Part shown: positions 1 to 11,786 of the stretch, in pieces | Position numbering within the stretch: the stretch's first letter is position 1 | Layout of the letters: each line of letters starts with the position of its first letter | Virus record (IMG/VR): IMGVR_UViG_2513237361_000005 | Reading direction: 5' to 3' (one strand) | Origin: a virus | Taxonomy: Duplodnaviria; Heunggongvirae; Uroviricota; Caudoviricetes | DNA: 29,840 nucleotides | The notes under the pieces: generated by a model | Told to the model about the DNA's origin: nothing | Databases searched by the model: none | The model's input: only the letters and a program-made list of their open reading frames with translations | Made by a program: the position numbers and the translations under genes

Positions 1-1011
1 TTATAACGTCACTCCGCCTTTTAGAGGATTCAGCGCGACGGCATTTTGCAGGTAGTCAGGCGCAAGGTGCGCATAGGCCATCGTCTGCTGAATGCTCGCA
101 TGTCCCAGAATCTGTTGCAGTGCAATTATATTGCCCCCATTCATCATGAAATGGCTTGCGAATGTATGCCGCAGGATGTGGGTTGCCTGATTGGGTGGTA
201 TATCAGGTTTCACTCTGCGTAAAATCCCGCAAAACTTCTCATAATCAACTTTGAATAATTTGGCGCTGGCCTCCTCTTTAACTTTTTTCTCCAGTTCCTC
301 AGAAATCGGCACGGTTCGCTTTTTACCGTTTTTGGTTTTCAGGAAGGTAACCCTGCAATTTGTAATCTGTGCTGGTTTTAGCGTGGCAACTTCCGTCCAT
401 CTTCCTCCGGTGCTCAGACATAAAAGCGCGACAAGTAAGTCATCGCCAGCCAAAACATTTAACAGTTTTTCGATTTCTGCTTTTTCCAGGAACGTCATTT
501 CAGGGTTGGCCTCCGCCAGTGGCGGCAGTCCGTGAATTGGGTGTTGCCCCGAAAATTCATCCAATTGAATTAATTTTGTGAACATGCCGGATAATCGGTA
601 CATGTCACGGTTTATCGTTGCGGCACTGATACCATCACGTAGTCGCATGGAACGATAATCCATCAAAGCCCTTTTGCTCATCCGACTCACTGGTATATCA
701 CCTATGCCGCTGATGGTTTTGAGCAGATGATTAAACTCTTTTGTTCCATGCTCGTGGTTTTGCCCGTGATATTTCCACCAGATGTCCAGCAACTCACTCA
801 AAGTTCGGCGATCTGTTCGCTGACCTGCCCATTCTTTCTGGCTGGCGTAGGCGATTGTGTATCGCTCAAATGCTACAGCCTCAGCTTTTCTTTCAAATTT
901 CCTGCGGATGCGTTTTCCGTCGCGACCGCGAGGTCTAATGTCCACTTCATAGCGTCCATCATCGAGCTTCTTAATTGACATAAGAAAGCCCTCTGACGCT
1001 GTATTCACCAT
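1..1011 (-). CDS. int: tyrosine integrase (P2 Int-like site-specific recombinase)
   Basis: 336-aa ORF at the prophage edge; C-terminal region HILRHTFASHF...LGHASIQQTMAYAH carries the conserved H-x-x-R and catalytic Tyr of tyrosine recombinases; sits downstream of the repressor gene on the same strand as in P2. Confidence 0.9.
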   Translation of the reverse strand: MVNTASEGFLMSIKKLDDGRYEVDIRPRGRDGKRIRRKFERKAEAVAFERYTIAYASQKEWAGQRTDRRTLSELLDIWWKYHGQNHEHGTKEFNHLLKTISGIGDIPVSRMSKRALMDYRSMRLRDGISAATINRDMYRLSGMFTKLIQLDEFSGQHPIHGLPPLAEANPEMTFLEKAEIEKLLNVLAGDDLLVALLCLSTGGRWTEVATLKPAQITNCRVTFLKTKNGKKRTVPISEELEKKVKEEASAKLFKVDYEKFCGILRRVKPDIPPNQATHILRHTFASHFMMNGGNIIALQQILGHASIQQTMAYAHLAPDYLQNAVALNPLKGGVTL

Positions 1012-2502: not shown

Positions 2503-2727
2503 ATGCATACAGTTTCTGAAAATCAGTGCGGTAAATACGCATTACTGCTGCAACAGGCCAGAACCGAAGCACAGGCCGACGCAGCGACGCGCTTTTCTTC
2601 TCATCTTGACGCCATGATTCGCCACATCACAAAGGCGGAGTTATCCCGCGTGGAGATAGTCGAGCTGCTCAGTCAGGAGTCGGAAAAATTTCACAACATC
2701 GGATTGTCTCGCGGGGAGGTGCTTTGA
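2503..2727 (+). CDS. hypothetical early protein (P2 orf80 position)
   Basis: ATG at 2503 preceded by GGAGAAAG Shine-Dalgarno; stop overlaps the next start. Confidence 0.5.
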
Positions 2728-2993
2728 TGTCCTGTTCTCGTTCAGTTGTATTACTGAATAACGCCTTAAAAATCGCCGTTATGGAGAATGGCGATTTGTC
2801 TCTTATTCAACTTAGGTTTGATAAAGAAAAACGCGAAATAACTGAATCTGTTTTCGCGATTTATCAGAACGAATTAAACCTCCTGTCTGATGTGGTCAAT
2901 TTACTTGTTAAACGTGCTGTATTTCACAAGCAAATTTCCTCCGTGGATGAACTGACAAAATTAACGACAGAAATCGCCCAGCTATTGCGCTGA
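2724..2993 (+). CDS. hypothetical early protein (P2 orf81 position)
   Basis: 89-aa ORF; ATGA overlap with the upstream gene. Confidence 0.55.
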
Positions 2994-3254: not shown

Positions 3255-3526
3255 GTATTCGTATTGAAATTGGCGAACGTTATGTCGTTACCAGTGACAG
3301 CTTTCAGTTTATTCTCCACGAGAAAAAGAGAGCTGAAAGCGGTAAAAACGCCGGTCAGGAATGGCTGGCGGTGGTTGGTTATTACCCGAAATTAAGCCAG
3401 CTCGTTTCCGGCCTGATGCATCACGATATTCTGACCGGAAGCGCAAAGTCTTTTGCTGATTTAAACGCGCAGGTTGAGCAACTCAGCAAGCGTTGTTCAG
3501 AGGCTTTTGGCTCATATGGCCGTTAA
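3251..3526 (+). CDS. hypothetical early protein (P2 orf83 position)
   Basis: 91-aa ORF; ATGA overlap with the upstream gene; its end overlaps the start of gene A. Confidence 0.55.
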   Translation: MSIRIEIGERYVVTSDSFQFILHEKKRAESGKNAGQEWLAVVGYYPKLSQLVSGLMHHDILTGSAKSFADLNAQVEQLSKRCSEAFGSYGR

Positions 3527-5801
3527 AGCCTCCGGGCGTTTTGTCCCTCCGTCAGCATTTGCCGCAGGCACCGGTAAGGCGTTTACCGGTGCTTATGCAT
3601 GGAACGCGCCACGCGAGGCCGTCGGGCGCGAAAGACCCCTTACACGTGACGAGATGCGTCAGGTGCAAGGTGTTTTATCCACGATTAACCGCCTGCCTTA
3701 CTTTTTGCGCTCGCTGTTTACTTCACGCTATGACTACATCCGGCGCAATAAAAGCCCGGTGCACGGGTTTTATTTCCTCACATCCACTTTTCAGCGTCGT
3801 TTATGGCCGCGCATTGAGCGTGTGAATCAGCGCCATGAAATGAACACCGACGCGTCGTTGCTGTTTCTGGCAGAGCGTGACCACTATGCGCGCCTGCCGG
3901 GAATGAATGACAAGGAGCTGAAAAAGTTTGCCGCCCGTATCTCATCACAGCTTTTCATGATGTATGAGGAACTCTGCGATGCCTGGGTGGATGCGCATGG
4001 CGAAAAAGAATCGCTGTTTACGGATGAGGCGCAGGCACATCTGTATGGTCATGTTGCTGGCGCTGCACGTGCTTTCAATATTTCCCCTCTCTACTGGAAA
4101 AAATACCGTAAAGGGCAGATGACCACGAGGCAGGCATATTCTGCCATTGCCCGTCTGTTTAACGATGAGTGGTGGATTAGTCAGCTTAAAGGCCAGCGTA
4201 TGCGCTGGCATGAGGCGTTACTGATTGCTGTCGGGGAGGTCAATAAAGACCGTTCTCCTTATGCCAGTAAACATGCCATTCGTGATGTGCGTGCGCGCCG
4301 CCAGGCAAATCTGGAGTTTCTTAAATCGTGTGACCTTGAAAACAGGGAAACCGGCGAGCGCATCGACCTTATCAGTAAGGTGATGGGCAGTATTTCTAAT
4401 CCTGAAATTCGCCGGATGGAGCTGATGAACACCATTGCCGGTATTGAGCGTTACGCCGCTGCAGAGGGTGATGTGGGGATGTTTATCACGCTGACCGCGC
4501 CGTCAAAGTATCACCCGACACGTCAGGTCGGAAAAGGCGAAAGTAAAACCGTGCAGCTTAATCACGGCTGGAACGATGAGGCATTTAATCCAAAGGATGC
4601 GCAGCGTTATCTCTGCCGTATCTGGAGCCTGATGCGCACGGCATTCAAGGATAATGATTTACAGGTCTACGGTTTGCGTGTCGTCGAGCCACACCACGAC
4701 GGAACGCCGCACTGGCATATGATGCTTTTTTGTAATCCACGCCAGCGTAACCAGATTATCGAAATCATGCGTCGCTATGCGCTCAAAGAGGATGGCGACG
4801 AAAGAGGAGCCGCGCGAAACCGTTTTCAGGCAAAACATCTTAACCGGGGCGGTGCTGCGGGGTATATCGCGAAATACATCTCAAAAAATATCGACGGCTA
4901 TGCACTGGATGGGCTGCTCGATAACGATACCGGCAGGCCGCTGAAAGATACTGCCGCGGCTGTTACCGCATGGGCGTCAACGTGGCGTATTCCGCAATTT
5001 AAAACGGTTGGCCTGCCGACAATGGGGGCTTACCGTGAACTACGCAAATTGCCTCGCGGCGTCAGCATTGCTGATGAGTTTGACGAGCGCGTCGAGGCTG
5101 CACGCGCCGCCGCAGACAGTGGTGATTTTGCGCTGTATATCAGCGCGCAGGGCGGGGCAAATGTCCCGCGCGATTGTCAGACTGTCAGGGTCGCCCGTAG
5201 TCCGTCGGATGACGTTAACGAGTACGAGGAAGAAGTCGAGAGAGTGGTCGGCATTTACGCGCCGCATCTCGGCGCGCGTCATATTCATATCACCAGAACC
5301 ACGGACTGGCGCATTGTGCCGAAAGTGCCGGTCGTTGAGCCTTTGACTTTAAAAAGCGGCATCGCCGCGCCTCGGAGTCCTGTCAATAACTGTGGAAAGC
5401 TCACCGGTGGTGATACTTCGTTACCGGCTCCCACACCTTCTGAACACGCCGCAGCAGTGCTTAATCTGGTTGATGATGGTGTTATCGAATGGAATGACCC
5501 GGAGGTCGTGAGGGCGCTCAGGGGCGCATTAAAACACGACCTGAGAACACCAAACCGTCAGCAAAGAAACGGAAGCCCGTTAAAACCACATGAAATTGCA
5601 CCATCGGCCAGACTGACCCGGTCGGAAAGAATGCAAATTACCCGTATCCGCGTTGACCTTGCTCAGAACGGTATCAGGCCGCAGCGATGGGAGCTTGAGG
5701 CGCTGGCGCGTGGCGCGACCGTAAATTATGACGGGAAAAAATTCACGTATCCGGTCGCTGATGAGTGGCCGGGATTCTCAACAGTAATGGAGTGGAGATG
5801 A
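3516..5801 (+). CDS. A: replication initiation endonuclease gpA (rolling-circle Rep, HUH class)
   Basis: Starting at ATG 3516 gives 761 aa, the P2 gpA length. Contains an HUH-type motif (PHWHMMLF) and a tyrosine pair (AGYIAKYISK) typical of rolling-circle initiators. Confidence 0.9.
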   Translation: MAVKASGRFVPPSAFAAGTGKAFTGAYAWNAPREAVGRERPLTRDEMRQVQGVLSTINRLPYFLRSLFTSRYDYIRRNKSPVHGFYFLTSTFQRRLWPRIERVNQRHEMNTDASLLFLAERDHYARLPGMNDKELKKFAARISSQLFMMYEELCDAWVDAHGEKESLFTDEAQAHLYGHVAGAARAFNISPLYWKKYRKGQMTTRQAYSAIARLFNDEWWISQLKGQRMRWHEALLIAVGEVNKDRSPYASKHAIRDVRARRQANLEFLKSCDLENRETGERIDLISKVMGSISNPEIRRMELMNTIAGIERYAAAEGDVGMFITLTAPSKYHPTRQVGKGESKTVQLNHGWNDEAFNPKDAQRYLCRIWSLMRTAFKDNDLQVYGLRVVEPHHDGTPHWHMMLFCNPRQRNQIIEIMRRYALKEDGDERGAARNRFQAKHLNRGGAAGYIAKYISKNIDGYALDGLLDNDTGRPLKDTAAAVTAWASTWRIPQFKTVGLPTMGAYRELRKLPRGVSIADEFDERVEAARAAADSGDFALYISAQGGANVPRDCQTVRVARSPSDDVNEYEEEVERVVGIYAPHLGARHIHITRTTDWRIVPKVPVVEPLTLKSGIAAPRSPVNNCGKLTGGDTSLPAPTPSEHAAAVLNLVDDGVIEWNDPEVVRALRGALKHDLRTPNRQQRNGSPLKPHEIAPSARLTRSERMQITRIRVDLAQNGIRPQRWELEALARGATVNYDGKKFTYPVADEWPGFSTVMEWR

Positions 5802-6253
5802 TGGCAAAAATTCACGAGGTAAAGCTGCACGCAAAATATTTCGACCTTGTGCTGGAAGGAAAGAAACGCGCAGAGTTTCGGAAAAATGACCGTAATTATG
5901 AGCACGGGGACACGTTGATTTTGCATGAATGGGTGCAGGGTGTGTATACGGGGCGAAAGGTTGAAGCCCGGATAACAGATGTTACTGACCTGTCAGACTG
6001 GCTGGAAGATTATGTCTTGCTAAGTATTGAGCTGCTTAATACAGGCGCATATGAGATTGTGAACTGGAAAGAACTTAGTGAGCGTGGTCTGGTATTCAGA
6101 ATTAATCATGAAATTATGCATCAGCTCGGCCTTGCTGTTATGTATGAACCAGAGACGGGGATGTCTGGCGGGGCAATGGTTGCCACGGATGGAGCATGGA
6201 ACTATTCAGATGAACAGATGGAGCGTGCACAGCAAAACGGGTGGCTTGGATAA
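5801..6253 (+). CDS. DUF3850/ASCH-like (PUA-fold) protein with an unassigned C-terminal extension
   Basis: Start overlaps the gpA stop. N-terminal about 80 aa (MAKIHEVKLHAKYFDLVLEGKKRAEFRKNDRNYEHGDTLILHEW...) resembles the small DUF3850/ASCH-like proteins common in phages (recognition by eye, unverified). Confidence 0.5.
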   Translation: MAKIHEVKLHAKYFDLVLEGKKRAEFRKNDRNYEHGDTLILHEWVQGVYTGRKVEARITDVTDLSDWLEDYVLLSIELLNTGAYEIVNWKELSERGLVFRINHEIMHQLGLAVMYEPETGMSGGAMVATDGAWNYSDEQMERAQQNGWLG

Positions 6254-6459
6254 TGCACAGAATACCAGGCGAGATACCGCACCATAAAACTAAAAATATC
6301 AAGCTGATGGCTATTGTTCAGCGTTTACAGCGGATTATGGTCAACGAAAATATGACGCCCGATGAGCTGGTCGGGTGTGCCGAAATAGTCCGGGATAATT
6401 ACGGGCGGTTTAATCATATCGGTCAATCAAGAGTTACGCCACCACCACGCAGACGATAG
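6253..6459 (+). CDS. small hypothetical protein
   Basis: 68-aa ORF whose ATG overlaps the upstream TAA (TAATG); Pro/Arg-rich C-terminus; no recognisable motif. Confidence 0.4.
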   Translation: MHRIPGEIPHHKTKNIKLMAIVQRLQRIMVNENMTPDELVGCAEIVRDNYGRFNHIGQSRVTPPPRRR

Positions 6460-6682
6460 AGAACGCCGCCAGTCGTGAAACTTGTTTTCAGGGCTGGCGG
6501 GGTTGAACAACGAGCGAAGCGAGGCGTTAGTTGACAGACATATTTTTACTGCGTTGGTGCCGGTTTTTGACGGTTGAAAGGAGTTAGGTTGGAGAGCCAA
6601 CAACTTACAAATATTCAAAAGTAAGCATCCTGTTGCTAACATGAGGTCGATTTTTTATGTGGATGATGCAAAAAGGATAGCT

Positions 6683-7414
6683 ATGGATACTATAATCGCT
6701 TTTCTATCACTCGCTTTTTTCGTTGCTTTCTTCATCGGGTTAATCAAGCCATCACTGGTGCGAATGCCAAACCGCAAACGTGCAAGTGCGGTTTATCTCG
6801 GAGGAGGTTTTGTATTGAGCATAATTGGTTCAATACTCTATCCAACAGAAAAAAGCCAGCCAGTTGCTAAAACTGAAACATCAACCGTTGCAGAACACAA
6901 AGTCCAAAAAACATTCGAATATGGTGAAAAAACACTCAAGGAATATCGGAACGAGTCAAAGAAAACACGACACGATATTGTGAATAGTTACATTGATTTT
7001 AAGGAAGTTCCAGCCACCGCGTCAGATGCGTTTTATGCCTGCATGAGTGAGTATACATTTACCAAAGATGATGAGTTGAAACTCGGTGATGTTCTTGGGT
7101 GGTGCTTTAATGATTATGAAAATGACCCGAATTCACTAAACAATAAAATCAATCTTGATACATTTCAGAGTAATTTTAGTGGTTGGGATGGTTCTTATCG
7201 TCCATTGGAAAAACTAATTAAAGATAATATGAACGATGATTCATCTTATAAACATGTGTCAACGGTATATCATTTGGTTTTGAATAAAGACCCGTACGCT
7301 ATTGTGAAAACTACGTTTCGCGGTACTAATGCTTATGGTGGAGTGGTTAAGCAGACTATAGCTGCGCGCGTCGACATACGAACGGGAGAGGTTGTATCAA
7401 TATTAGATAATTGA
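6683..7414 (+). CDS. cargo membrane protein: two N-terminal transmembrane helices plus about 170-aa soluble domain of unknown function
   Basis: ATG 6683 with AGGA 5 nt upstream; hydrophobic helices TIIAFLSLAFFVAFFIGLI and AVYLGGGFVLSIIGSILY separated by a basic loop (RMPNRKRAS); coding sequence is strongly AT-rich compared with flanking phage genes. Confidence 0.6.
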   Translation: MDTIIAFLSLAFFVAFFIGLIKPSLVRMPNRKRASAVYLGGGFVLSIIGSILYPTEKSQPVAKTETSTVAEHKVQKTFEYGEKTLKEYRNESKKTRHDIVNSYIDFKEVPATASDAFYACMSEYTFTKDDELKLGDVLGWCFNDYENDPNSLNNKINLDTFQSNFSGWDGSYRPLEKLIKDNMNDDSSYKHVSTVYHLVLNKDPYAIVKTTFRGTNAYGGVVKQTIAARVDIRTGEVVSILDN

Positions 7415-7423
7415 TTATAAGCA

Positions 7424-7452
7424 ATGAGTGCTGAATGGTTTTCTGCACTCAT
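7424..7452 (+). other. intergenic hairpin between the two cargo genes (8-bp stem ATGAGTGC/GCACTCAT, 13-nt loop)
   Basis: Perfect inverted repeat read from the sequence; no following U-tract, so more likely a processing or attenuation element than a terminator. Confidence 0.3.
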
Positions 7453-7479
7453 ATAAATATGAATTTTTTAGGTGATGTA

Positions 7480-7992
7480 ATGGAATATCAACTGGATTTA
7501 CAAGAGAATGCTATTGATAGTTTTAATGAAGCTTTAGCAAAGTATGAGTTAGGGCAGAGAGGAGAATTGCGGCAATATAAATTTGCTATCTTGCATTTGT
7601 CACATTTTCTTGAGCTGGTGTTGAAGTTATATATTGTTACAGTAGATGAAAATTTACTGTATTCCGATTGCTATAAACAAATAGCTACAAGAGCAAAGCA
7701 AGAATCAATCAGTCTTTTAGACGCATATAATAAAATTATCGAGGATGGCGTTGATTTAGGAAGGTTCATTGAAGGGAAATCTAAGCCATATACGATAACC
7801 TTAGATCAGGCACTAAACTTTGCTAAGTGTGAGAAATGCGGCATAACTGGGGTTGATTTTGTAGATATTGATTTTTGTAATGATATAGCTTGGATAAAGA
7901 ATTTAAGAAATGATATTGAGCATTATCAATTCAGACTTACTCCTAAAGATGCGCGCTTGTGTATTGGACGCCTCGTCCGGGGGGGTAGCTGA
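7480..7992 (+). CDS. HEPN-like protein segment; probable N-terminal part of a single frameshifted gene spanning 7480-8416
   Basis: ATG 7480 with AGGTGA 5 nt upstream; helical-looking sequence with R-N-D-I-E-H (Rx4H) at 7906-7923, the HEPN signature; the frame terminates immediately after a G7 tract (7979-7985). Confidence 0.55.
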   Translation: MEYQLDLQENAIDSFNEALAKYELGQRGELRQYKFAILHLSHFLELVLKLYIVTVDENLLYSDCYKQIATRAKQESISLLDAYNKIIEDGVDLGRFIEGKSKPYTITLDQALNFAKCEKCGITGVDFVDIDFCNDIAWIKNLRNDIEHYQFRLTPKDARLCIGRLVRGGS

Positions 7993-8416
7993 GTTTATTG
8001 ATATCTTCGATCTTTTTAATCTTGAAGATGAAGTCGGTGCAGATAACTTACAGATATTTCAAACTTTAGCTGATGAATACTCTCATCGGCTCTCTGAAGC
8101 CAAGAAAGAAGTTGAAGAAAGAGAGGCTGAAGCTTTTTATGGGGTTAGGCATAAATTTTATGAATTGGTCGATTGGAAAGTTTATGAATGTCCTGAGTGT
8201 TCTAACGACACAATGATTCCCTCTGATGAGTCTTCTACGGGTTACAAATGCACTTTTTGTCAGAATGAAGATAGTGATGATATTGATGTTGCTTGCGATT
8301 GTTGTGGTGCGCAGGCTCCCAGCAGCGAAATGAGCATTTGGCCAATGGATGATGGTGATGTTGAGTATCGTTGTTACTACTGTTCAGGGCAGTATCAGGC
8401 AGATAAAGACTTTTAA
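7910..8416 (+). CDS. Cys-rich zinc-ribbon segment; probable C-terminal part of the same frameshifted gene
   Basis: Overlaps the upstream ORF by 83 nt in another frame with no convincing Shine-Dalgarno before ATG 7910; contains CPEC-x17-CTFC and CDCC-x23-CYYC Cys pairs (two zinc-ribbon-like modules); AT-rich. Confidence 0.5.
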   Translation: MILSIINSDLLLKMRACVLDASSGGVAEFIDIFDLFNLEDEVGADNLQIFQTLADEYSHRLSEAKKEVEEREAEAFYGVRHKFYELVDWKVYECPECSNDTMIPSDESSTGYKCTFCQNEDSDDIDVACDCCGAQAPSSEMSIWPMDDGDVEYRCYYCSGQYQADKDF

Positions 8417-8498
8417 TTTGCTGTTAACTGCTAGGGATGAAGTTAAAAATCATAGGACTCATCGTTAATTTATACTCAAATTTGTTTGATTTCTGCAT

Positions 8499-8522
8499 TG
8501 CATACAAAAGATGCATTTTTTT
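8499..8522 (+). terminator. weak candidate terminator for the cargo genes (TGCAT/ATGCA stem followed by T7)
   Basis: 5-bp stem with 7-nt loop followed by a run of seven T; the short stem makes this tentative. Confidence 0.25.
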
Positions 8523-8542
8523 GCATGCGTCAGACGTGCCTG

Positions 8543-8564
8543 CTCTGACAGTATATTGTCAGAG
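8543..8564. repeat. perfect inverted repeat CTCTGACA-gtatat-TGTCAGAG near cos
   Basis: 22-bp palindrome read directly; possible protein-binding site in the packaging region or a hairpin. Confidence 0.4.
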
Positions 8565-8622
8565 CTGGCGCGAATCTGGATTGTTCGTGCAACTGCATTA
8601 AAACCGCCCTATGAAGCGGGCG

Positions 8623-8641
8623 GGCGAGGCGGGGAAAGCAC
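8623..8641. other. cos site: GGCGAGGCGGGGAAAGCAC (P2-type 19-nt cohesive end)
   Basis: Matches the P2-family cohesive-end sequence as I recall it from memory; located about 170 bp beyond the Q stop, the expected position relative to Q. Confidence 0.55.
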
Positions 8642-8782
8642 TGCGCGCTGGCGGTGGTGCTGATTTTATTTTTTCAGCGTCTGAGCGCGTCGTGATGGCG
8701 TTTAGATTGTGCGCCGGGGCGTTGGTGTGTCTGTGGGGTGTTTTGTGCGGTGGTGAGCGTGTGAGGGCGTGATGACGGGGTG

Positions 8783-8806
8783 TAAAAAAGCCGCCCGCAG
8801 GCGGCG
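8783..8806 (-). terminator. rho-independent terminator of the P-Q operon
   Basis: On the minus strand: GCCGCC-ugcg-GGCGGC hairpin followed by UUUUUU, starting a few nt after the Q stop codon. Confidence 0.55.
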
Positions 8807-8810
8807 ATGT

Positions 8811-9845
8811 TCAGCCGTTGTCAGTGTCCAGTGAGTAGTTTTTAAAGCGGATGACCTCCTGACCGAGCCAGCCGTTTATCTCGCGGATCCTGTCCTGTAA
8901 CGGGATAAGCTCATTGCGGACAAAGACCTTTGCCACTTTCTCAATATCACCCAGCGACCCGACGTTCTCCGGCTTGCCCCCCATCAACTGAAAGGGGATG
9001 CGGTGCGCGTCCAGCAGGTCAGCGGCGCTGGCTTTTTTGATATTAAAAAAATCGTCCTTTGTTGCCACTTCACTGAGGGGGATAATTTTAATGCCGTCGG
9101 CTTTCCCCTGTGGGGCATAGAGAAACAGATTTTTAAAGTTGTTGCGGCCTTTTGACTTAACCATGTTTTCGCGAAGCATTTCGATATCGTTGCGATCCTG
9201 CACGGCATCAGTGACGTACATGATATATCCGGCATGAGCACCGTTTTCGTAATACTTGCGGCGAAACAGCGTGGCCGACTCATTCAGCCAGGCAGAGTTA
9301 AGGGCGCTGAGATATTCCGGCAGGCCGTACAGCTCCTGATTAATATCCGGCTCCAGCAGGTGAAACACGGAGCCGGGCGCGAAGGCTGTCGGCTCGTTGA
9401 AGGACGGCACCCACCAGTAAACATCCTCTTCCACACCACGGCGGGTATATTTTGCCGGTGAGGTTTCCAGTCTGATGACCTTGCCGGTGGTGCTGTAACG
9501 CTTTTCCAGAAACGCATTACCGAACACCAGAAAATCCAGCACAAAGCGGCTGAAATCCTGCTGGGAAAGCCACGGATGCGGGATAAATGTCGAGGCCAGA
9601 ATATTACGTTTGACGTAAATCGGGGAGCTGTGATGCACGGCAGCACGCAGGCTTTTTGCCAGACCGGTAAAGCTGACCGGTGGCTCATACCATCTGCCGT
9701 TACTGATGCACTCGACGTAATCCAGAATGTCACGGCGATCGAGTACCGGCACCGGCTCACCAAAGGTGAATGCCTCCATTTTCGGGGCGCTGGCGGTCAT
9801 TGTTTTTGCCGCTGGTCGCGGTGTTTTCCCTTTTTTCTTGCTCAT
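8811..9845 (-). CDS. Q: portal protein gpQ
   Basis: 344 aa, the P2 Q length; adjacent to and co-oriented with the terminase ATPase gene; cos nearby. Confidence 0.9.
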   Translation of the reverse strand: MSKKKGKTPRPAAKTMTASAPKMEAFTFGEPVPVLDRRDILDYVECISNGRWYEPPVSFTGLAKSLRAAVHHSSPIYVKRNILASTFIPHPWLSQQDFSRFVLDFLVFGNAFLEKRYSTTGKVIRLETSPAKYTRRGVEEDVYWWVPSFNEPTAFAPGSVFHLLEPDINQELYGLPEYLSALNSAWLNESATLFRRKYYENGAHAGYIMYVTDAVQDRNDIEMLRENMVKSKGRNNFKNLFLYAPQGKADGIKIIPLSEVATKDDFFNIKKASAADLLDAHRIPFQLMGGKPENVGSLGDIEKVAKVFVRNELIPLQDRIREINGWLGQEVIRFKNYSLDTDNG

Positions 9846-11616
9846 CAGTAAAACTCCAGAATGGTGGATGTCAGCGGAGTGCTGATACCGGCGGTGAGTG
9901 GCTCATTTAACAGGGCGTGCATGGTCGCCCAGGCGAGGTCGGCGTGGCTGGCTTCCTCGCTGCGGCTGGCCTCATAGGTGGCGCTGCGTCCGCTGCTGGT
10001 CATGGTCTTGCGGATAGCCATAAACGAGCTGGTGATGTCGGTGGCGCTGACGTCATATTCCAGACAGCCACGGCGGATGACGTCTTTTGCCTTGAGCACC
10101 ATTGCGGTTTTCATTTCCGGCGTGTAGCGGATGTCGCGCGCGGCGGGATAGAACGAGCGCACGAGCTGGAACACGCCGACACCGAGGCCGGTGGCATCAA
10201 TACCGATGTATTCGACGTTGTATTTTTCGGTGAGTTTGCGGATGGATTCAGCCTGAGTGGCAAAGTCCATGCCTTTCCACTGGTGACGCTCAAGTATTCT
10301 GAATTTGCCACCGGCCACCACCGGCGGTGCCAGCACCACGCATCCGGCGCTGTCGCCACGGTGTGACGGGTCGTAACCAATCCATACCGGGCGGGAGCCG
10401 AACGGATTCGCGGCAAACGGCGCATAGTCTTCCCATTCTTCCAGCGTGTCGACCATGCAGCGTTGCAGCTCCTCGAACGGGAACACCGATGCCTTGTCGT
10501 CAACAAATTCACACATGAACAGGTTTTTAAAATCGTCGGCGCTGTTTTCGCGTTTGAGCTGCTCAATGTCGAACAACGTGCAGCCACCTTTCAGGGCGTC
10601 CTCAATGGTGACAATCTGCCGCCACTGGCCGTCCGCACAGAGAAGACCACCGGCAAGGGCGTTATGACTGACGTCGATTTCCACGCGTTCGGCGGCGCTG
10701 GCGCGTCCCCGGTTAAACAGTTCACCCGACCAGAACGAGTAGGCGTCGTGCGCCAGCGTGGACGGGGTGGAGAAATAGGTCGAGCGCAGGTGACTCTGTG
10801 AGGCCATACCTGATGCCACCTTACGCAGTACCTGAAAATTCGGGATCCAGAAAATCTCGTCGACGTACAGGTCGCCGTTATGGCTCTGCGCGGTGTTGGA
10901 GTTGGTGCCGAGAAAAATCAGTTTTGCGCCGTTATTGCCCAGGACAATCGGGTCACCGGTCAGGTCAACGTCAACCAGACGGGCAAAGGCGATGATGTAT
11001 TCACGGAACACATACGCCTGCGTTTTACTGGCCGACAGAAAAATCTGGTTATGACCGGTTTTCAGGGCACGCAGCAGCGCCTCGCGGGAAAAATAAAACG
11101 TTGCGCCAATCTGGCGGGATTTCAGGATATCGCGGATGCGGTGCTCAAGCCCGGCGCGATACCAGTGCAACTGATATTCGAAAGACTGCTCAAAGAAAAT
11201 CTGCTCCAGCTTTTCGATGGCCTCGTCACTGAAAAATTCTTTTTCGGTTTGCGCCGCCCGCCTTTGTTGCGGTTAGCGACGTTCGGATTAAGGTCTGCCT
11301 CGTTGCCGGTCTGGCTGTAGCGATTTACCCGTGCCAGTCGTTCAATCTGGCGTCCCAGCAGGTCAATTTCCTTGAAGTCACCGCCGGTTTTCTGCGGTTT
11401 GATGATGAGCTGGGTCAGCCGCGCTTCCAGGCTCATTTCGACACGGCTGATGGGGGCAACGCTGTCCCAGCCGTCGCGCTGTTTCCAGCTCTGCACCGTC
11501 GGGCGTTTCATCTGCAACATGGCGGCAATCTGCGGCACGGAAAATCCCTGCCAGTACAGCAGCGCCGCCTGACGACGCGGGTCGTGTAAAAGAGTGGTGT
11601 CTGTGGTGATGGTCAT
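9845..11616 (-). pseudogene. P: terminase ATPase (large) subunit gpP, interrupted by a 1-nt frameshift
   Basis: N-terminal 5' part (ATG 11616, GAGG Shine-Dalgarno) is in one frame, open to 11122; the remainder is in another frame, open from 11272 to 9845. Total span is 1772 nt (not divisible by 3); one extra nucleotide would give 590 aa, the P2 gpP length as I recall it. Confidence 0.8.
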
Positions 11617-11786
11617 GAATACCTCGCCGTGATGAATACACGGCAAGGCTACTGAGTCGCGCCCCGCGATTCGCTAAGGTGCTGTTGTGTCAGTGATAAG
11701 CCATCCGGGACTGATGGCGGAGGATGCGCATCGTCGGGAAACTGATGCCGACATGTGACTCCTCTAATCACTATTCAGGACTCCTG

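Follow-up and report, generated by a model that had tools for sequence, protein, structure and literature searches.

Phase-variable contingency genes with poly-G/C tracts occur, for example, in Neisseria, Haemophilus and Campylobacter, and the tracts of established phase switches are usually 8 or more residues long. In these genes the homopolymer lies inside the open reading frame (ORF) and its length sets the reading frame. The locus described here resembles them in both respects but differs in that its tract is short (6-7), is unconserved in homologues and shows almost no length polymorphism among assemblies. The affected gene encodes a predicted HEPN protein, and HEPN effectors are typically toxic.

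Among described HEPN proteins, we compared the product of this gene with HepT (of MNT-HEPN toxin-antitoxin systems), Csm6/Csx1 and the HEPN domain of AbiA. Unlike these, the locus has no MNT antitoxin partner, and the protein has no CARF domain and no polymerase domain; instead it carries a helical linker and two Cys4 zinc ribbons, and its RNase activity is predicted. The closest catalogued family is PADLOC PDC-S64, itself a computational candidate family. The likeness lies in the single-gene architecture, which fits because no neighbour is conserved across distant loci, and in the location in a prophage defence hotspot. The differences are that the match here covers mainly the N-terminal ~90 residues of the 339-position model and that this copy is frameshifted. 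A literature search for PDC-S64 returned no paper that names or tests the family and no defence test of any member.

The setting is also one with described counterparts. The slot between the replication gene gpA and the portal gene Q of P2-like prophages is a reservoir and hotspot of anti-phage systems (PMC9122126; PMC13586616), in which recognisable defence pseudogenes are reportedly rare, making up about 2% of pseudogenes (PMC13586616). As in the hotspot defined by PMC9122126, the cargo described here sits between gpA and portal Q and its content varies among related prophages. It has the same flanks (gpA and a DUF3850/ASCH gene upstream, portal and terminase downstream), it is low in GC, and it is exchanged between near-identical prophages. 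It differs from characterised hotspot cargo in that its HEPN gene is, as judged from sequence, a candidate defence gene.

The prophage and its cargo slot

The window (the whole stretch of DNA that was analysed, 29,840 nucleotides) is 100% identical to AEME01000001.1 of Escherichia sp. TW09308, a freshwater isolate belonging to clade V (PMC3466228, PMC7716201). A P2-like prophage has integrated here beside cpxP, and the order of the prophage genes places the low-GC block in the gpA-portal Q slot (Table 1). In the same slot of related P2-like prophages (loci L103-L108) we observed a retron Ec48-associated protein, a DUF87 ATPase and DEAD/ResIII helicases. Such differing cargo in close relatives fits the rapid swapping described for the hotspot.

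Table 1. Features of the window, with positions, strand and remarks.
Feature	Position	Strand	Remarks
Integrase	1-1011	-	prophage layout
DUF5405 gene	2727-2993	+	indel ~2975-2977, CCC vs CC near the 3' end; 88 aa vs 100 aa in GN04171
Replication endonuclease gpA	3474-5801		prophage layout
DUF3850/ASCH gene	5765-6253		prophage layout
Low-GC cargo block	6641-8416		37% GC vs 53% for the window
243-aa cargo gene	6683-7414	+	phrog_3403 (function unknown); directly upstream of the HEPN gene
Shine-Dalgarno AGGTGA	7470-7475	+	4 nt before ATG 7480; from reading of the sequence
Whole gene, frameshifted allele of a 311-aa predicted HEPN + double zinc-ribbon protein	7480-8416	+	PDC-S64-like; phrog_20824 match
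ORF A	7480-7992	+	residues 1-168 + out-of-frame 'GS'; 170 aa; annotated WP_202799032.1
Predicted HEPN catalytic motif R143-N-D-I-E-H148 (Rx4H)	7906-7923	+	codons read
ORF B as listed mechanically	7910-8416	+	initial 25 residues are meaningless out-of-frame sequence spanning the HEPN motif codons
G7 homopolymer / +1 insertion site	7979-7985	+	intact alleles: G6, CGG GGG GTA = R167 G168 V169
3' part, residues 169-311, helical linker + two Cys4 zinc ribbons	7986-8416	+	readable only as 'ORF B'
Two Cys4 zinc ribbons	8189-8383	+	C237/C240/C257/C260 and C272/C275/C298/C301
Portal (gene Q)	8811-9845	-	then terminase, then morphogenesis genes
Large terminase gpP	9845-11646	-	A5 on + strand at 11232-11236 (T5 gene-wise) vs T6 in GN04171

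In P2-like prophages the phrog_3403 gene still adjoins the HEPN gene where identity is down to 77-79%. The DNA match stops just past the phrog_3403 gene in 83 complete E. coli genomes, which lack the HEPN gene; the only one of them inspected, MS7163, has a different 260-aa gene at this point. We rejected the phrog_3403 protein as an obligatory partner of the HEPN gene, given its absence at distant loci and its place beside a different gene in MS7163; it could be either a modular partner or cargo in its own right. The Klebsiella HEPN gene lies in another island, close to one gene for a PIN-domain protein and to a second whose N6_Mtase/Eco57I domains suggest restriction-modification.

Reading frames at the G tract and the single-chain family

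A first-pass annotation of the window had drawn attention to a run of seven G at the junction of two overlapping ORFs, and the sequence agrees in each particular. The run lies near the stop of ORF A, whose 3' end reads ...CGG GGG GGT AGC TGA (protein end ...RLVRGGS, then the stop), and ORF B is open across it in the +1 frame relative to ORF A, since (7910-7480) mod 3 = 1. The two overlap by 83 nt in different frames. The Shine-Dalgarno sequence before ATG 7910 had been called poor, and we found none there or before ATG 7949. ATG 7480, with its Shine-Dalgarno sequence (Table 1), is likely the true start, and the RefSeq 311-aa CDS begins at the same site. Removal of one G, predicted to fuse the two ORFs into a protein of about 310 aa, gave a 311-aa ORF (...RLVRG-VAEFIDIF...) that includes the stretch RLVRGVAEFIDIF. 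ORF B is not an independent gene.

By direct reading, the tract is the sole G/C run of at least 7 within the window. Its presence alone is no excess over chance in dinucleotide shuffles of the window: G7 occurred at a mean of 2.6 per window on both strands, with at least one in 87 of 100 shuffles. G/C homopolymers are in fact depleted rather than enriched in the window, with 4 G6 matches observed against 12 expected. The significance of the run therefore comes from comparison with other genomes: it falls precisely where the two frames meet in a gene that elsewhere encodes a single chain.

The nearest relative, E. coli GN04171, contains the same 1.9-kb block at 99.4% nucleotide identity with a tract of G6. 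Its block is one base shorter, the missing base falls in the G-run (indel at 7979), and it encodes a single 311-aa CDS (WP_004099450.1). A database search with the repaired protein gave 128 significant homologues. Of the 120 listed among them, nearly all are single chains of 270-311 aa, and their hosts range from Enterobacteriaceae to Pseudomonas, Vibrio, Halomonas and Betaproteobacteria. The alignment of the repaired fusion to homologues, proposed at the outset as a check, thus returned single chains, not the pairs of separate overlapping genes that would have spoken against one gene, and it identified intact proteins of identical sequence: the fusion is 100% identical to P0125, found on 46 contigs, and to residues 16-326 of P0001, found on 3. 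Sister alleles are present on 179, 87 and 42 contig records.

All of the intact-allele DNA loci that were read have G6 (9/9, including L001 and L003-L007), as do three IMG/VR contigs; G7 is present in L008 and L009. The G7 allele differs from the intact alleles by 3 synonymous substitutions and the extra G, and because so few sites separate them the frameshift is very recent.

The two prophages also show a small homopolymer difference at ~8778-8782, an intergenic site before the portal terminator (8790-8805). The window reads GGGGTG and GN04171 reads GGGGGGG, so that a G7 run is present in GN04171 at this non-coding site.

A separate disruption of the same gene was observed in E. coli HVH 69 (P0128/P0130 and P0131), ~10 codons upstream of the tract position. 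The first part runs through ...TPK into EGANKSLI and a stop, and the second half begins MCIGRLVRGV.... The unrelated residues at this junction suggest inserted DNA. Two separate PHROGs families, phrog_22563 and phrog_25835 (179 aa and 152 aa), match halves of the HVH 69 type; one broken gene has therefore been catalogued as two families. Since the HVH 69 break is unrelated to the G tract, the HEPN gene is lost now and then by different routes.

Predicted architecture of the intact protein

An AlphaFold model built from a 54-sequence alignment was confident (pLDDT 87.9, pTM 0.77) and predicted the up-down helical bundle of the HEPN fold. The sequence contains an Rx4-6H motif (Table 1) whose H never varies among the 54 homologues and whose R, N and E show at least 90% conservation. 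The C-terminus is modelled as beta-hairpin ribbons, for which Foldseek gave zinc-ribbon matches (prob 0.8-0.98), and 7 of the 8 ligand cysteines are invariant in the homologue alignment.

A sequence search of solved structures gave no significant match, and no Pfam model, HEPN models included, reached its gathering score for the 311-aa protein; family members match DUF3644 and HEPN models weakly. The PDC-S64 model (HMM PDLC05059) matched the 311-aa protein with E=1.6e-17 at partial coverage and matched all 54 aligned homologues (best E-value 3.8e-32). The PHROGs family phrog_20824 (function unknown) matched over the full length. We assign the protein to PDC-S64 by the HMM match and, by predicted fold and motif, to the HEPN superfamily.

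The N-terminal HEPN domain would be an RNase, of the metal-independent kind that marks the superfamily, and the zinc ribbons would serve as a sensor or nucleic-acid-binding module. Domain content and hotspot location together point to a putative role in defence, and by analogy to HEPN proteins of other defence and toxin systems the intact protein would most likely act as a single-gene abortive-infection-type anti-phage effector. The label 'effector', applied before any fold was predicted, was reasonable given the HEPN fold with its Rx4H motif.

The tract falls within the conserved motif CIGRLVRG (R167-G168-V169). In the AlphaFold model the frameshift lies within a helix that spans 155-175 of the 311-aa protein (170-190 as P0001 is numbered) and that comes after the Rx4H-bearing helix, and the break is mid-helix.

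Origin and consequence of the extra G

We consider it likely that a single gene was split into the two overlapping ORFs by the recent gain of one G (G6 to G7), a real +1 insertion. An inactivating insertion in a single gene had been proposed at the outset together with a read error as its possible cause. The proposal of a broken single gene stands, given G6 in GN04171 and ~120 single-chain homologues; the read error is made less likely by the G7 of SRR29904084. On either account, real or artefact, the feature is a frameshift of one gene. It is unlikely that the strain has G6 and that a homopolymer error in the AEME01000001.1 draft added the seventh G, even though the repaired HEPN gene is otherwise perfect and three other ORFs (gpP, the DUF5405 gene and cpxP) are disrupted within ~32 kb of the TW09308 assembly. 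The nearby frameshifts in gpP and cpxP are also the pattern expected of an indel-prone draft assembly, and the T5 terminase split recurs in several obviously indel-ridden assemblies. Against such an error, a 3266-nt contig of SRR29904084, assembled by Logan without a reference, is 100% identical to window positions 5378-8643, G7 included, and the same ORF is on record for SRR29904083. These two accessions could be the same strain as TW09308 or, conceivably, reference-derived reads. The C3 variant of the DUF5405 gene is likewise reproduced, in SRR16763804 and SRR29904084, and because the same 88-aa product is present in these independent accessions that variant is real. With G7 and the DUF5405 C3 both recovered, independent reads bear out at least two of the 'suspicious' indels, and we hold with good confidence that the insertion is a real mutation. 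A different proposal, that the tract is an evolved contingency switch (ON at G6, OFF at G5 and G7) which slips at high frequency and balances toxicity against protection, is very unlikely. It draws on the position of the tract inside an ORF, on the occurrence of both +1 (G7) and -1 (G5, P0150) variants in public data, on a G7 allele that has no secondary damage and therefore could revert, and on the toxicity typical of HEPN effectors. Comparison of homologous loci argues otherwise, the long G-run being confined to the Escherichia allele. Homologues that are 80-83% identical encode the same peptide, GRLVRGVAEF, with codons AGG GGT GTG or CGC GGA GTG; a homologue at 71% identity encodes it with CGC GGA GTG and has no long G-run; and in 61 more distant loci the longest G-run at the tract site is 2-4. 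We also carried out exact protein look-ups for the G5 and G8 products and for G7 in a second allelic background, with both start codons each. G7 was found solely in the TW09308 lineage, G5 on one 1.7-kb contig (P0150), and the G8 product was absent in both allelic backgrounds. A DNA pattern scan for the tract gave 3 matches in IMG/VR, all G6, no match in JGI metagenomes or the phage GenBank collection, and GN04171 alone among complete E. coli genomes. Length variants thus account for at most ~1% of records (one G7 lineage and one G5 contig against >220 intact contig records). The comparison of tract lengths in homologues that had been suggested (G6 in the nine intact loci, 2-4 in the 61 distant ones) gave no switch pattern: close genomes show almost no tract-length polymorphism, and the tract is not conserved where synonymous alternatives exist. 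A G6 tract is, moreover, shorter than those of established switches, and the window is depleted in G/C homopolymers. The sequence comparisons thus oppose the slipped-strand switch of the first-pass annotation and favour an incidental short homopolymer with occasional slips.

Recoding is very unlikely, whether as +1 slippage on G7 (to give ...RGVAEF...) or as a two-chain system with a C-terminal piece made from ATG 7949. A tRNA-Gly could re-pair perfectly one base forward (GGG to GGG), restoring the wild-type sequence, and the G7 lineage alone has a synonymous T at 7950, by which an ATG arises 30 nt ahead of the tract in the frame of ORF B. The A site, however, offers neither a stop nor a slow codon to stimulate slippage, GGU being next; neither ATG 7949 nor ATG 7910 is preceded by a Shine-Dalgarno sequence, and the break interrupts a predicted HEPN-domain helix midway. 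G7 is seen in no other lineage, nor is a natural split; the one further split allele found, in HVH 69, breaks elsewhere, with unrelated junction residues. In programmed frameshifting the site is conserved and both frames are needed; here G7 is present in one lineage and the other homologues are single-frame. There is also little probability in the combined proposal that G6 is a toggle exploited by selection, with G7 and G5 off and revertible, and that ATG 7949 gives a separate zinc-ribbon half as a functional or regulatory two-chain variant. Two truly independent overlapping genes are scarcely credible. RefSeq does list ORF A as a protein (WP_202799032.1) and gene callers do give a 155-aa ORF B, but every homologue found is a single chain and the junction lies inside the conserved CIGRLVRG motif. 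The exact ORF B product (from ATG 7910) is absent from a 15-billion-protein collection, ORF A is present on G7 contigs only (TW09308, SRR29904083 and SRR29904084), and we found no homologue family that starts at the ORF B start, except the halves of the disrupted HVH 69 allele.

Three further observations concern the neighbouring sequence differences. At 7949-7951 the window reads GAT versus GAC, with C at 7950 in 5/5 intact alleles compared (GN04171 and L004-L007); gene callers start the 155-aa 'ORF B' at ATG 7949, and this ATG is probably a coincidence. The gpP frameshift splits a 590-aa protein into fragments of 164 aa and 441 aa. The 441-aa fragment is on record for the TW09308 assembly only. 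The identical 164-aa fragment occurs in 70 blocks of the public collection, from unrelated assemblies and from prophages with different hotspot cargo, and several of these assemblies contain many other broken genes. In IMG/VR the gpP tract is T6 in 119 cases and T5 in 1. The wild-type gpP sequence would be regained exactly if tRNA-Phe slipped by -1 on U5, and the T5 split may be a recurrent error, a recurrent mutation or something tolerated. The chromosomal gene cpxP, next to the attachment site, is frameshifted at ~2112 of L008, ~455 nt upstream of window position 1, where the TW09308 assembly has GAAGGGAG and GN04171 has GAACTGGAG; cpxP may be a true pseudogene here, or the difference may reflect indel errors of the draft.

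Under the favoured explanation, a real insertion in one gene, the intact gene would encode a 311-aa single chain carried as cargo in the slot that a P2-like prophage has between genes A (replication) and Q (portal). Its tract would have arisen by accident of codon choice, with the conserved R-G-V written as CGG GGG GTA, and would be a weak slippage hotspot, which in the TW09308 lineage would have gained one G. Translation of the G7 allele would then stop after residue 168 and an added 'GS', mid-helix after the Rx4H motif, and the product would have neither the helical linker nor either zinc ribbon. At most a trace of full-length protein might arise by a spontaneous +1 slip of tRNA-Gly on the G-run. 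The G7 allele is most likely a null pseudogene, although in principle the shortened HEPN domain, its Rx4H motif being intact, might retain some activity. The event looks like an ordinary inactivating mutation, a homopolymer frameshift pseudogene of a known kind.

For annotation, the finding means that WP_202799032.1 and the downstream ORF make up one frameshifted gene and not two proteins. The mechanism itself is unsurprising, and the mildly unusual point is the presence of a defence pseudogene in the P2 hotspot. Because recognisable defence pseudogenes are reported there as rare (PMC13586616), the frameshifted HEPN copy is a minority case. It would represent a natural loss-of-function allele of a widespread, uncharacterised candidate defence family (PDC-S64-like) that combines a predicted HEPN domain with a double zinc ribbon. 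With one base and three synonymous sites between them, the G6 and G7 alleles form a ready isogenic pair for testing phage protection and toxicity.
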